The notes under the pieces are model-generated. The model was given only the letters and a program-made list of their open reading frames with translations. It was not told where the DNA came from and searched no databases. A stretch of DNA of 64,000 nt from an uncultured Chlamydiales bacterium (GTDB lineage: Bacteria; Chlamydiota; Chlamydiia; Chlamydiales; FEN-1388). The position numbers and the translations under genes are program-made. Shown one piece after another: positions 53,200-62,262 of the stretch (its first letter is position 1; every line of letters begins with the position of its first letter). The stretch lies in assembly GCA_963826935.1 (NCBI GenBank), contig CAWGYH010000009.1, forward strand, positions 79,922 through 143,921. Reading direction: 5' to 3'.

Positions 53200-56100
53200 T
53201 TATTTAACTTTGGCGCTCTTCTTGCTGGGCAAGAATGAGGTGAATGAGGTGAGTACGTTGAAGACGCCGGTTGAGCCTTTGATGGCTTTGGTGCGTTTGG
53301 TGAGGGTGGGAAGTTGGCCGGCAAGTTCGGTAAGATCGGGCCAGTAGTGGCGGTATTTGTCACAAAGCCAGGCAATGTCCTGGCCCTCTTTGCTGGTGCG
53401 CACCTTTTCTATCCACTTTGTCTCTTTTTCGTTAAGGTATCTCTCGCCTGTGTAGATCTTGGCAATGATTCCTACTCGGGCAAGGTCATCTCCTTGCAGC
53501 ACTTCATCAATGGTTTTGCCTGTGATGCCCTTTGTTACATGGTAGCTTAACACATCGCGCCCAGACATCAGGTAGTAGCTTGTGCCCTTGGAAAGAGAGT
53601 CTTGGTTTTTGGCCATCTTTTCAAGTACCGCTGCTGCATCCAGAATATCAAGCGGCATGATGGATAGGGCGCCTTTATCGGTCACTGACAGCACATACTG
53701 AAAGGCAGGTTTATGTACGGGCTGCTTTCCTTCGACATCTCGTTTCCAGTTTGGTGAGGGATTTATGCTAATGCCTACTACTTCGCGCTTTTGCCTGCCT
53801 GCATCATAGCGCATGTAGTTGCCATCCCAGTTCTCTCTAGGAAGGGGTTGTAGAGAAAGAGTTCCAAGCGCTCGTGCGGTTTGCTGCTCGATGTCAAGTG
53901 CGATATCCTTGGCTGCCTCAGCCTCAGCCTCGGCTTCTGCCGCTTCTGCTTCAACAACAGCATCTTCTGCTCCTGTGAGGCTTGATGCAAGGGTTTCAGG
54001 GGGCAACTTGGCAAGGTCGACATACTTGTCAAACTCTGCTTCAACTGCCTGCATGTTGATGAGACGCAAGAGCGCGCGATCTGCCTTAATAGGCTCTAAT
54101 AGCTGATCTTTTATCCTTTGGACCGCCTCTTTTGGTTTAAGAGGCTCGAGGGTTGTGCGCAGCTCCTTAAGAGGGTCTGACTCGGTGCTGGTTATAATCT
54201 GGCTTTCTAGTTTCTTAAAAATTTCCTTAATATTCCCGGGCTTGTAGAGGTTCTGTTCGATTAAATTTGCAAGGTATTGACTAAGGCTTGAGGAATAGTC
54301 AAGACCACGCTCATTTCCCTCTTCGATTTTGCTGTAGAGGAGCAGGTCTTTAAGCTTGAGTTTGTCTGATTTTACACACCTCTTAACTACCCCAGCTTCA
54401 GACTCTAGTACAATAACTCCTGCAACTTGTCCCTCATTTAGTTTTCTCATCCTGCCTAGCCCCTGTTCAAAGAAGGTTGAGGTGACGTTAAGTCCTCCTG
54501 TGATCAGCCCCTTGCAGGTAAGCGGCATCGGGGTATCGGTACCAATAGATTTACCTTTGCGGATGAAGATAAAGGTCTCCTCAGGTAGCAGCTGGCTCTC
54601 TTCGCGAAGAATGGGTTCCGGCTTTCCTCGTTCGCAAATCATAGAGCGCCCTGCTTCATCGTAGTAGACTACTCCCTTGCACTCAGGGCGGCTCGAGAAG
54701 ATACGCTCACTTATTTGTTCGGGGCTGAGGTCGCCAAATAGCCCGCGTGAGTCGGTGATCTCCTGATACTCCGGATATTTGCTTAAAATATGGCTTAAAA
54801 GCTCTGGGGGCTTGAGATCCGGCACTACAAATACTTTATCTTGCGAGTTTTTCCACAAGGCAAGCAGGTTCACAATGGGCGCTGCAGGCTGCTCGCGCGT
54901 TGTCATAGAGGGGGGCAATGTGTCAGGATTTGTCGTTCCGGATGCCGCCTGACAGTGATGTAAGGCGCTGAGAAGCGAGTAGCTTGAAGCTGAAATTTTT
55001 TGAGTAAAAATAGAAATTTTTGGAAGCACATGGACTTGAGTAAGTTCCAGGCGGTCTATAAGCCCTTTTGGGCTATTTATAAAGCTTGCTATCTTCTCAA
55101 AATCTGCCTCCTTAAGATCGAGAAGTTCAGGAAGCTGCAGCTCTTTTTGGAGCTTGAGAAATAGCTTGAACGAGGGTGCCTGGCGGGCTGCTTCACCGCG
55201 AGCCTCTTGCAGCTCTCTTAAATCGCTTACAAAAGAATGAATATCGGAAGGGGCAAATGGAACCCGGAGATTTCCTTGGATGGTAAAGTCTAGTAGATCA
55301 TCAAGTGTTGCAAATTCTGAGTTTGGCCGCGCATTTCCCTGCCTTGCAGGGATCGCCATTCTGCCCGGACCTAAAAGGTATCTTCCCTGATAGTCCCTGC
55401 GCAAGGTTCTTGGAAGGTTTGTCGCAAGCTGGCGGCGCAAACGGGCAAAGCGCTGCAGATCTGCAGGCTCCATTTTTTTAAAGAATTTTTCACAGTCTTT
55501 TGAGTATTTTCCCATCAGGTTATCATGAATTGCTTTCCGATACTCTTCAGGCACCTGAAAGAGCGCAAGCGCTTTTGTGGCAAGCTCTGATTTAAGCACA
55601 TTGAAATTATCTTCAGTAAGAACGCGCTTGTTTGGATCAAAATGGTCGGGAAGAAAATTAAAATTCCAGCGAGCAAGGATCTCTGGATCTAAGATGAGCT
55701 TGCCAAAGAGCTCGCCAGTCTCGTTGCAGCGCTCCTTTGAGACAGGCTGTTTTTTGCCCACAGCAAAGTCAAAGCGCTGCCTATTGTCTAAACATTCTGC
55801 TGATTCGTCGATGAAGTTAGAGATGCGGGTTGAAAGTGTTTGGCGAATCTTCAAAAGCTCCTCTGTCTTCTCAGGCTCATCCTTTGTCAGCGACTCTTTG
55901 AGGGCAAGCCCTGCCAGGTTCTGAAGGCTGTTGATACTCATGAGGATGATTCTTCCCTCTTTTTCTGCCAGGTCCAGCTGCTCATTTAGCCAGTGAAGGT
56001 ATGAAAGGTTGTTTGCCTGCGCTCTATTGACATCGATTCTCTGGATGCCGAGTGAAAAAAGATCTCCCAGAAGCTCTCGAAGGTGCTTTGTCTGATCTTC

Positions 56101-62100: not shown

Positions 62101-62262
62101 ATCTGCCTGGGCCTTGTTCAACTCTTCTTGCAGGCTCTCCATATCAAAACCCGGAAGTCGAGGCTCTTGATCGGATGTAAAGCCAAGCGATGTCATTTTT
62201 CTTTTGCTTTCTGTAGGGCATAGGACTTGATTTTCATACGATTTCTCCTCTTTTCCATACAT
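53200..62262 (-). CDS. 3020-aa protein: N-terminal Cys-protease-like domain plus SF2/SecA-like (DUF3638-like) ATPase region
   Basis: GGHSIV...LINRGQG...QRGNIC; RKDQV, ARTGFGKS, MTVPQSL, FIDES, ASGT, IGTD, EQGLGRMR. Confidence 0.8.
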   Translation of the reverse strand: MYGKEEKSYENQVLCPTESKRKMTSLGFTSDQEPRLPGFDMESLQEELNKAQADGKLGQRTVERLQAIDTSFKKVGEAYRKLSSQAVDVAGALNTIDRSIRRLRGELKTKELDIGNMQFTVVSKGKSQTMCEELASQLGRVHTLLQEITETSTLTEEQRARVQELTNLVSSDATRYQEKIAPESFAGVGVFNRMFLGAALMEHESRDSITHLGFTINVIESQLQSGRIPQEEIPALEKLLRSYKAALRIESTRSPTYSPMMITMAKNIIMECLEKDGEIMFEGGYDTRNGGHSIVIQLKRETDFFGRTSISGRLINRGQGVQCHDGVTVANMRSRCAPFLELGSVSSASLENSRFLEMLIELKCVEVPDDSGKMVPTSYGYEDFYDVVVPEWPGIIKTLAADQEVMAEQRGNICSMIAWITPFQEVVSVTTGWRLKFAMRMQAIERLLELSTMYPARASHLEWALEKTARTLKKLVDNGADVAEEKAAFEALRSRTKETIAEIRNQELLDRSQKRAALLTASQFIAPEHCGLTVKEPPAAMQQEACPPLWKGYEALWEEAKAHFKTVPSGEDFQVFYKSLLWNEHREDAAQLGWRYLENSSKADLTQQGMQTIRTILAGNLSTASNFVPTARISLHACSVVGHLMVSYLKEIKRLSTELGNPFSGYPEVLITDQARRALGIFEGAIGLLRFPSPALKDEMMHLMEEYKALANGESGIPVEAVAEERAAGFSVNARKYYDASEVLQDPVAAAWVELVNKFSEEFKKNDFYQNSPCAEFTAIKWRGYRINSTEEPLATICRMNVMLEDCQRLLYRTLGFAHMSPLAGSMPKEPRQPLELDKTLDRGSPHNNVDTEPGFSTRDITCDTFIRSAMPLGFTDSSHGLMVQSVYLWAREEMPIVAELLDRRIREERDRFSTQNQQLMCREDIQFGKTTIPALEAQELLSILVSDDMIIPQTIRYFDRHFRRLEDGRFQALLEGFLLTPRQDTGKAALGHLVQGRERSSEALIHFLSEGIERAGRLHMPEAQSALMRLLAIAINNFDHNGHKELSNSAERALLKAFDLLDKGKTLSEQERCTLLYWEVALYPYVASHPELARRCFEAKEQLSKIGGSCTFEKRWMIKEEFTKAIDSLGSPTTPTGKLPPWLLANDKFLFDVDNPVVTKEGDKYLFLDKSGRKCAVTIKGLTFTSYYELEASDGMRCWFRQDTEPLFENANHPCSVEGVLGRENTQWVSEKEPLEAIVLTKSKEISYRVVDGKVVHPQIAGLFLASTYPPDGLAERLMGLDDDKEVLAWVDAQNKLQRVEYPALELTLVRSKEDKWISLTHAGFYVVLEAVVSEFEPCSHYLVLEHPKAGRRAIATNRALTLEPVTTGKGFEKPPTTRLENPKLYTYKIDRKTNRLMPALDPERLLYQTCVELSFCRYNQARELIRRLKLHPAGWNEAMKKTAGWMEENAEARDEHPRACALRLQLRSIRWAQEPEKELTNEERAVLETDYINYLDQLNALANYRLSEREELKIIAKLEGNVWSEESQAIIAQRKAMLLGEPMGVAQLRYYEPTFPPQLPSLIPTCGFIDALMAKKMVECANLPEQISCETRPGQAFVHNFLHYYKILTTANASSEEFKAVVRLLRVGRRGQDREAESLRRFLLAVASDPRAYPKYESLLLEASKGALGVCLAPLFTSELPVEMDDWGFLARITKGNLEVMQFNPQRAVLFKTKEEEATAKAQQGMLGQLFSAFSGWGSAESAQKEIPAYYAPIGTDIVQILQNQELLVQETKQEHDARLQKEVAYLKELRGAYNLPKAVANPLAERSCMRTQKGIDEMIRKLEKSTTLSFSIQNKEDIESIAGHLTFGIQTANERLSQQRKAITDVARDYSAEVKLRLQAGLLEKMSFEELILSFGCGDDEAIIQSNPGLKPKLGQLKGMIREYLVQKTEIQKLERAFGNVRQVIEAAAQNGWEDKSVKSEVQALIGALTQERAYDPATEDTLLTFEAMTNMRLRKDQVKPLKEMTGEALVNIELEARTGFGKSKLFIPLWLFLTRQKGRLTMMTVPQSLLEDQTKHLRELLGDLFSLGIQRIDVNRAQANNLSYLHWLNEQLDLAEKEGRIILMSINSLQNLAGLALKESLTKDEPEKTEELLKIRQTLSTRISNFIDESAECLDNRQRFDFAVGKKQPVSKERCNETGELFGKLILDPEILARWNFNFLPDHFDPNKRVLTEDNFNVLKSELATKALALFQVPEEYRKAIHDNLMGKYSKDCEKFFKKMEPADLQRFARLRRQLATNLPRTLRRDYQGRYLLGPGRMAIPARQGNARPNSEFATLDDLLDFTIQGNLRVPFAPSDIHSFVSDLRELQEARGEAARQAPSFKLFLKLQKELQLPELLDLKEADFEKIASFINSPKGLIDRLELTQVHVLPKISIFTQKISASSYSLLSALHHCQAASGTTNPDTLPPSMTTREQPAAPIVNLLALWKNSQDKVFVVPDLKPPELLSHILSKYPEYQEITDSRGLFGDLSPEQISERIFSSRPECKGVVYYDEAGRSMICERGKPEPILREESQLLPEETFIFIRKGKSIGTDTPMPLTCKGLITGGLNVTSTFFEQGLGRMRKLNEGQVAGVIVLESEAGVVKRCVKSDKLKLKDLLLYSKIEEGNERGLDYSSSLSQYLANLIEQNLYKPGNIKEIFKKLESQIITSTESDPLKELRTTLEPLKPKEAVQRIKDQLLEPIKADRALLRLINMQAVEAEFDKYVDLAKLPPETLASSLTGAEDAVVEAEAAEAEAEAEAAKDIALDIEQQTARALGTLSLQPLPRENWDGNYMRYDAGRQKREVVGISINPSPNWKRDVEGKQPVHKPAFQYVLSVTDKGALSIMPLDILDAAAVLEKMAKNQDSLSKGTSYYLMSGRDVLSYHVTKGITGKTIDEVLQGDDLARVGIIAKIYTGERYLNEKETKWIEKVRTSKEGQDIAWLCDKYRHYWPDLTELAGQLPTLTKRTKAIKGSTGVFNVLTSFTSFLPSKKSAKVK

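Follow-up and report, generated by a model that had tools for sequence, protein, structure and literature searches.

A giant DUF3638-family protein from an uncultured Chlamydiales bacterium, with a SecA/SF2-type motor and a candidate thiol-enzyme domain

Introduction

Two kinds of known protein come to mind on reading the giant gene that is the subject of this paper, a gene of 3020 codons on the minus strand (53200-62262) of a 64,000-nucleotide stretch of DNA from an uncultured Chlamydiales bacterium (contig CAWGYH010000009.1, positions 79,922 to 143,921; we call the whole stretch the window). The first is SecA, whose preprotein cross-linking domain interrupts the motor between motifs II and III and whose Walker A motif reads approximately RTGEGKT. 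The second is the CE clan of cysteine enzymes (Ulp1/SENP, ChlaDUB1, SseL, and YopJ among them), in which a Gln shortly precedes the Cys, the Cys begins a helix, and many structures have been solved. CE-clan enzymes, deubiquitinases included, serve as effectors in Chlamydiae and in Chlamydia-like bacteria (PMC10643670). A preliminary description of the locus joined the two ideas, reading the protein as a fusion of a CE-clan-like protease domain to a motor resembling SecA and the superfamily 2 (SF2) ATPases.

What, then, is this protein, and which of its parts look as if they do something? Judged by its sequence, the gene is an ordinary member of a large family, the DUF3638 giants, that has been catalogued and is functionally uncharacterised. 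Its C-terminal third is supported, by motifs and by a predicted structure, as a complete two-lobed SecA/SF2-type motor with motifs Q, I, Ia, II, III, V, and VI, and the domain near its N terminus (the N-domain) is conserved and un-annotated and very likely holds a Cys/His/Gln active centre.

Results

The gene is an uninterrupted open reading frame (ORF) of 9063 nucleotides with an ATG start, as first described, and an identical 3020-amino-acid (aa) protein is encoded on a Logan contig that was assembled separately, from run ERR10755938. The product is predicted to be soluble: neither a signal peptide nor a transmembrane segment was found in it, and its highest Kyte-Doolittle average over 19 residues is 1.39. 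All parts of the protein discussed below are given in minus-strand coordinates of the window.

Its family membership is not in much doubt. Pfam DUF3638 (PF12340) matches aa 1977-2177 at E=3.8e-17 (62.8 bits against a cut-off of 31), which places the resemblance to DUF3638 proteins suggested in the preliminary description above the gathering threshold; no other Pfam family matched the 3020-aa protein, and a scan of it against NCBIfam returned nothing meaningful. When the full protein was used in a word-indexed homologue search, six matches were returned, among which are three bacterial proteins of giant size (3342-4396 aa), a fungal one with DUF3638, DUF3645, and DUF6606, and a Trypanosoma protein that bears the UniProt name "ubiquitinyl hydrolase 1." The same kind of search gave no matches with the N-domain alignment A3; a search with the ATPase region only gave two fragments at 38% identity, one of which NCBI names [quoted passage not shown]

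An exhaustive profile search, seeded by a four-sequence N-domain alignment (A2), was far more generous. At E<=1e-3 it yielded 1567 cluster representatives (at the 50% identity level); 473 of these also passed E<=1e-10, and nearly all of the matches listed are proteins of 3000-4600 aa. Among the best 150 of the 1567, nearly every near-full-length protein also has the ATPase; by phmmer, the ATPase region of our protein matched 86 of 156 retrieved proteins, and wherever both domains were detected, their order was constant, with the N-domain at about residues 100-1250 and the ATPase some 1700 residues farther on. In the full-length alignments (A4 and A5), conserved blocks run the length of the protein, the middle ~1400 residues included, and the same layout (N-domain, long scaffold, ATPase, ~3000 aa in all) recurs in dozens of representatives and in all of the complete loci that we recovered from GTDB. 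"Fusion" is therefore the wrong word for this protein, because the pairing of N-domain and ATPase is the standard architecture of the family.

The other two domains found in the fungal relative are harder to see. The hidden Markov models (HMMs) of PF12359 (DUF3645) and DUF6606 have no match in our protein at E<=1, and hhalign found no detectable relation between the N-domain profile and the fungal DUF6606 N terminus (probability 0.3%). A block of the form AIP...SEF...T, with P2305, F2317, and T2327 (columns P476, F488, and T498 of A5) nearly invariant, does align with a segment of two proteins that carry PF12359, P0005 and P0006, and here the DUF3645 HMM is silent.

Within the N-domain, which is ~250 aa long and whose conserved alpha/beta core (aa 258-450; 60913-61491) is delimited by the profile search, conservation, co-loss of residues, and an AlphaFold model, the argument for an active centre turns on a handful of residues. 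Over 152 aligned homologues, Asn316 and Gly320 are present in every sequence, Gly318 in 151, Tyr385 in 150, Cys414 (codon 61021-61023) in 148, His292 (codon 61387-61389) and His324 in 147 each, and Gln409 in 138, and residue 412, Asn in our protein, is Gly in 141. His292 lies in GGHS (290-293), Asn316 in INRG (315-318), and Gln409 and Cys414 at the two ends of QRGNIC (409-414). Cys414 is absent from only four homologues (P0006, P0077, P0088, and P0091), and those same four are also without His292 and Gln409, having kept Asn316, His324, and Tyr385. They are the four longest members of the family (4699-5620 aa), and P0006 comes from Trypanosoma. The joint loss of His292, Gln409, and Cys414 from the same proteins argues that the three form one functional unit and a genuine catalytic centre; it is the strongest sequence-level evidence that we have for such a unit, and it suggests that the N-domains of the four are natural pseudoenzymes. 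The preliminary description, which had proposed the His/Gln/Cys set as a candidate active site, is strengthened by both conservation and co-loss.

What kind of enzyme might such a centre belong to? An AlphaFold model of aa 200-520, built from a 32-sequence alignment, has a predicted local distance difference test score (pLDDT) of 91.5 and a predicted template modelling score (pTM) of 0.88, and it runs from three N-terminal helices through a beta-meander to a later helical bundle. In the model, His292 lies between strands and Asn316 lies right after the next strand, so that the two flank one beta-hairpin; Tyr385 is within a helix, and a helix begins at Cys414. One answer, that the N-domain is a CE-clan protease (a deubiquitinase or deSUMOylase of the Ulp1/ChlaDUB/SseL type) or a YopJ-type acetyltransferase joined to a motor, has obvious attractions. 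The CE-type linear order of His, Asp/Asn/Glu, Gln, and Cys is present as H292, N316, Q409, and C414, with the Gln ahead of a helix-starting Cys; Chlamydiae are known to deploy CE-clan deubiquitinases as effectors (PMC10643670); and homologues from viruses and a trypanosome are called "ubiquitinyl hydrolase 1" in UniProt. These names, however, are automatic, and no link to ubiquitin is shown. When 32 family members were compared with Pfam at E<=10, no recurrent, protease, or CE-clan family (C48, C5, C55, C57, and C79 were among those sought) appeared among the matches listed, which are the best 25 of 37 families. The N-domain profile (A3) met only chance-level matches, and no CE protein, among PDB sequences. 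Foldseek, given a confident model, found no PDB match below E=0.2 (the best had E=0.21) and no CE structure among the best 50. Moreover, the spacings of 24 residues from His to Asn and 93 from Asn to Gln are larger than those of Ulp1, and we know of no CE counterpart for the nearly invariant His324 and Tyr385. We consider a CE-clan enzyme decidedly unlikely; of the CE-clan-like assignment made in the preliminary description, only the linear order of the four residues is left.

The model did find company elsewhere. Against BFVD, Foldseek returned four giant-virus proteins, one from Harvfovirus (A0A3G5A476; E=2e-10, TMq 0.64), two from Hyperionvirus, and one from Fadolivirus; for two of the four, "ubiquitinyl hydrolase 1" is the automatic UniProt name. 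Two other assignments were tried along the way and set aside: a viral-tegument-like deubiquitinase family, the paper on which describes no giant ATPase context, and a large clostridial-toxin or lymphostatin-like cytotoxin, for which no glycosyltransferase or Peptidase_C80 match was found in Pfam.

A second answer would make the N-domain a cysteine enzyme that is no peptidase at all, perhaps a transglutaminase or deamidase, perhaps an acyl- or acetyltransferase, perhaps a ligase that forms thioesters, with the motor holding its substrate. Conservation and co-loss speak for such an enzyme just as well as for a hydrolase, no protease family or fold was matched, and the nearly invariant His324 and Tyr385 hint at a chemistry more elaborate than that of a simple dyad. 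No evidence tells specifically against such an enzyme, and none points to any particular one of these chemistries; in papain-type hydrolases, a Gln typically stands a few residues ahead of a helix-capping Cys. We regard this possibility as rather unlikely.

We turn next to the motor. Every motif that the preliminary description listed was located at the residues that it gave: RKDQV at 1998-2002, RTGFGKS at 2021-2027 (with Lys2026), VPQSL at 2049-2053, IDES at 2151-2154, ASGT at 2440-2443, IGTD at 2573-2576, and QGLGRMR at 2600-2606 (a second IGTD, at 1756, is irrelevant; the motif V copy is the one at 2573-2576). Lobe 1, which the DUF3638 match covers (aa 1977-2177; 55732-56334; Pfam, motifs, alignments, and AlphaFold), carries Q2001, Walker A (G2023-S2027), motif Ia (VPQSL), and Walker B (D2152/E2153). 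The end of lobe 1, with motif III (ASGT), and lobe 2 together span aa 2417-2629 (54376-55014; motifs, alignments, AlphaFold, and Foldseek); lobe 2 carries D2504, motif V (G2574 and D2576), and motif VI (Q2600, R2604, and R2606). In the 57-sequence alignment A4, Q2001, G2025, K2026, E2153, T2443, Q2600, R2604, and R2606 are invariant, and conservation reaches at least 90% at D2152, G2442, D2504, G2574, and D2576; motif Ia (VP..L) is present in the alignment consensus, and the 27-sequence alignment A5 repeats the picture.

An AlphaFold model of aa 1830-3020 (pLDDT 82.5, pTM 0.72) places these motifs in a recognisable machine. Long helices lead into lobe 1, and an insertion of ~250 residues separates Walker B from motif III; after lobe 2 come a helical region, an acidic linker, and, at the C terminus, a small domain rich in beta strands. 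In a Foldseek search of the PDB, SecA takes the first six ranks (prob 1.00; 1tf5 at E=9e-9, the range extending to 2e-6), with RapA, DinG, Rad54, RIG-I, ISWI, UvrB, and XPD below it, and the two RecA-like lobes match SecA, RapA, DinG, Rad54, and RIG-I at prob 1.00. The likeness does not extend to sequence: none of the SecA families (SecA_DEAD, SecA_PP_bind, SecA_SW) is among the Pfam matches, and PDB sequence searches with the protein and with A5 gave marginal, chance-level matches that did not include SecA. The SF2/SecA-like motor of the preliminary description thus stands, with its motifs invariant or nearly so across the family and with SecA supplying the six best PDB matches; the domain-by-domain AlphaFold and Foldseek comparison that had been suggested there returned a SecA/SF2 fold for the motor, and for the N-domain, neither a CE nor any other PDB fold.

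One could, of course, take the SF2 matches at face value and suppose that the protein is an unsecreted nucleic-acid helicase or remodeller working inside the bacterium, in defence or on behalf of a mobile element, with an N-domain that is regulatory or non-catalytic. RapA, DinG, Rad54, RIG-I, UvrB, XPD, and ZorD match the motor model at E values of 1e-5 to 1e-3, a fragment is named a DEAD/DEAH box helicase by NCBI, one homologue adjoins housekeeping genes, and the window contains an IS481-like transposase and an RHS gene. Yet SecA ranks over all of the helicases in Foldseek, the family is common to eukaryotes and giant viruses, and the catalytic-looking residues of the N-domain are strongly conserved; what is more, among 185,579 GTDB species the subfamily is seen only in obligate or facultative intracellular lineages (one of the seven loci belonging to an uncultured bacterium). 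Taken together, these points make a resident helicase improbable.

The remaining parts of the protein fill the space around these two domains. The N-terminal region before the modelled domain (aa 1-200; 61663-62262) is unconserved in the family alignments, and in the N-domain alignments conservation begins at about aa 258. The middle scaffold (aa 521-1974; 56341-60702) has conserved blocks common to the whole family and no match in Pfam or among PDB sequences, and it ends in ~140 aa of long helices that run into the motor (aa 1838-1973 in the predicted secondary structure). The insertion between motifs II and III (aa 2164-2415; 55018-55773) is mostly helical in the predicted secondary structure and holds the AIP...SEF...T block conserved in alignment A5, and after lobe 2 comes a helical region (aa 2637-2762; 53977-54354) with a 37-residue helix (model residues 808-844, followed by 849-860 onward). 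A beta-rich domain (aa 2816-2982; 53317-53817; predicted strands at model residues 997-1079 plus helices, and alignment consensus) closes the protein and is also found in the fragment P0007.

Between that domain and the helical region of the motor lies an acidic Ala/Glu linker (aa 2764-2806; 53845-53973) that contains AEAEAEAEA (aa 2775-2783) and is predicted to be disordered (pLDDT <50 at model residues 935-977). Could it be a place where the protein cuts itself? If the Cys domain were an autoprocessing protease that frees fragments after delivery, as MARTX and the large clostridial toxins do with their cysteine protease domains, then the linker could be the cleavage region; the protein is near the giant toxins in size, and the toxin protease domains also have His before Cys. 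No Pfam match to Peptidase_C80 or to the toxin glycosyltransferase families was found, however, the beta-meander topology is unlike the caspase-like fold, and the kinetoplastid homologues that are without the Cys still keep the architecture, all of which makes autoprocessing very unlikely.

Where else does the family live? A GTDB locus search over the 185,579 species found no relatives with the full protein and recovered them only with a Walker-A-region alignment (A6). Seven subfamily loci emerged, four from metagenome-assembled genomes (MAGs) of Chlamydiae, Chlamydiales, and Waddliaceae, two from Legionellaceae MAGs, and one from an uncultured bacterium (61% identity), and every complete locus encodes a protein of ~3000 aa with both domains. 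Viral contigs searched with A6 gave no matches. Farther afield, homologues of the N-domain are also found in Trypanosoma and in giant viruses, and a fungus has a DUF3638 homologue. Other family members, too, lie on bacterial contigs, one of them near a TopA-SWIB fusion, a chlamydial hallmark. That close relatives are confined to Chlamydiae and Legionellaceae fits an effector and does not prove one, and because the family occurs in relatives of Legionella, in giant viruses, and in protists, it is probably a host-directed factor.

The protein does not stand alone in its own genome. Across a divergent intergenic region of 108 bp (62263-62370) begins a second giant DUF3638 gene on the plus strand (62371-64000), which runs off the window; its full gene is found on a longer contig (L002, 1688-9892, minus strand). 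This paralogue is 2734 aa in full, has DUF3638, and shares ~22% identity with the 3020-aa protein in the ATPase region; its N-domain motifs read GGHAM, YNQGAGISYH, and QRSGTC, with the His, Asn, His, Gln, and Cys all intact. A Chlamydiales MAG (L005) has two adjacent family genes in tandem (4646-12829 and 13079-20548, both on the plus strand), and paired giant copies may therefore be recurrent. The 108-bp spacer holds one sigma-70-like match, on the minus strand (62332 to 62304), which does not exceed what chance would supply, and promoter and terminator scans around the 3020-aa gene found nothing above shuffled expectation.

As for the rest of the window, it carries TruA, an RNase HII-family protein with a DUF3378 N-domain, and RecN, all housekeeping genes, and it is bacterial chromosome. 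Immediately of interest downstream of the giant gene was a basic 146-aa ORF (pI 9.2), which was considered as a secretion chaperone and rejected on account of its pI, its lack of conservation in related loci, and the absence of a Pfam match. Two genes downstream is a patatin-like phospholipase of 418 aa (50407-51663, minus strand); patatin-like phospholipases are a common effector type of intracellular bacteria. A Gly-rich ORF of 761 aa (48114-50399, plus strand) lies in a patch with a GC content of 0.545 against ~0.45 nearby and has a hydrophobic N terminus, GGAI and FSGN motifs, and no Pfam match; these motifs are hallmarks of the chlamydial polymorphic membrane proteins (Pmp), and the ORF resembles a Pmp-type surface protein. 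An RHS-repeat protein of 1925 aa (40201-45978, plus strand) has seven RHS repeats, DUF6531, and a non-repeat C-terminal tip, and its repeats coincide with a stretch of strong GC and AT skew at 42-46 kb. Its end is overlapped by a 248-aa ORF with an internal duplication (45975-46721, plus strand), an overlap that suggests a toxin-immunity pair. Farther away are an IS481-type transposase (helix-turn-helix plus rve integrase core; 12514-13707, plus strand) in a low-GC stretch and a protein of 444 aa with a eukaryote-type Ser/Thr protein kinase domain (20126-21460, minus strand).

Discussion

Our favoured reading, which we judge slightly more probable than its negation, is that the protein is a soluble DUF3638 giant in which a SecA-like motor is coupled to a thiol enzyme built around Cys414, and that the bacterial copies are effectors delivered to a host. 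The motor would hydrolyse ATP to grip a polymer and then translocate or remodel it. With SecA as the best structural match, we lean slightly towards a polypeptide, and away from a nucleic acid, as that polymer. The N-domain would act, by way of the Cys414 thiolate, on the polymer or on a modification that it bears, with His292 activating the thiolate and Gln409 forming the oxyanion hole. The bacterial copies would most likely be delivered into the cytosol of a protist host as eukaryote-like effectors, a view that we take because the close relatives are confined to Chlamydiae and Legionellaceae, the distant ones belong to protists and giant viruses, and neither a signal peptide nor a membrane segment is present in the protein. 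The neighbouring genes for a patatin-like phospholipase, an RHS-repeat protein, and a Pmp-like protein, and the TopA-SWIB fusion near one homologue, are in keeping with our reading.

Several things weigh against this picture, and they deserve to be set down together. The case for secretion draws on taxonomy and nothing else. One homologue, in a 3.3-Mb bacterial contig, adjoins an ATP-synthase operon, which is a housekeeping-like setting. The TM-scores between the motor and SecA are low (0.26-0.44), and SF2 nucleic-acid motors match as well. Because the N-domain has no fold match in the PDB, the label of thiol hydrolase follows from conservation logic only, and the putative His292/Gln409/Cys414 centre is argued from conservation and co-loss. 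Finally, in the literature on DUF3638, DUF3645, DUF6606, and their Pfam accessions, we met only incidental mentions and no family member that had been tested.

It is tempting to go further still and to imagine that the N-domain stands for a new structural class among the cysteine (iso)peptidases, perhaps a new deubiquitinase or ubiquitin-like-protein protease, tethered to a SecA-like polypeptide motor, the whole being an injected unfoldase-peptidase machine common to protists, giant viruses, Chlamydiae, and Legionellaceae. We think that this version is unlikely. If the N-domain does hydrolyse ubiquitin-like modifiers, then it would be both a new protease class and a very large type of effector for environmental Chlamydiae and Legionellaceae. 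Even if it is no such hydrolase, the family lends itself well to structure determination and to simple mutant assays. The DUF3638 giants are widespread (the 1567 N-domain representatives say as much), and they now gain three features: a complete SecA/SF2-type motor, a candidate Cys/His/Gln site, and a confidently predicted fold that has no solved counterpart. The four pseudoenzyme-like homologues are natural controls for the candidate active site. What may be new here is the description of the family as a SecA-like motor plus an un-annotated candidate thiol-enzyme domain, together with the confinement of the bacterial copies that we found to Chlamydiae and Legionellaceae.

Comparison with Known Systems

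How close, in the end, are the proteins with which we began? The CE clan (Ulp1/SENP, ChlaDUB1, SseL, and YopJ) shares with the N-domain the order His, Asn/Asp, Gln, Cys and a helix-start Cys preceded by Gln, whereas the spacing differs, His324 and Tyr385 are extra and nearly invariant, and no profile, PDB-sequence, or fold match joins the two. The SF2 remodellers and helicases (RapA, Rad54, ISWI, DinG, XPD, and RIG-I) have the ordered motif set in common with the motor and match it in Foldseek at E values of 7e-6 to 1e-3; they rank under SecA, however, and our protein has no Pfam helicase family and no recognisable nucleic-acid-binding accessory domain. SecA itself likewise has two RecA-like lobes, a long helix after lobe 2, and, between motifs II and III, a large insertion, as well as a Walker A motif that differs modestly (RTGEGKT in SecA, RTGFGKS here). 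The 3020-aa protein departs from SecA in its size and setting, in the absence of a sequence-level match and of any membrane or SecY context, and in the low TM-scores.

The closest described systems are the DUF3638/DUF3645 giants of eukaryotes and giant viruses, which share size, domain order, and DUF3638 with our protein. The Trypanosoma protein P0006 and the Harvfovirus protein A0A3G5A476 have the same N-domain, and the AIP...SEF block, which may correspond to DUF3645 in those giants, is conserved in our protein also. The differences are a bacterial host (Chlamydiae), the silence of the DUF3645 and DUF6606 HMMs, and, set against the kinetoplastid giants, which are without the His, the Gln, and the Cys, the retention of all three.

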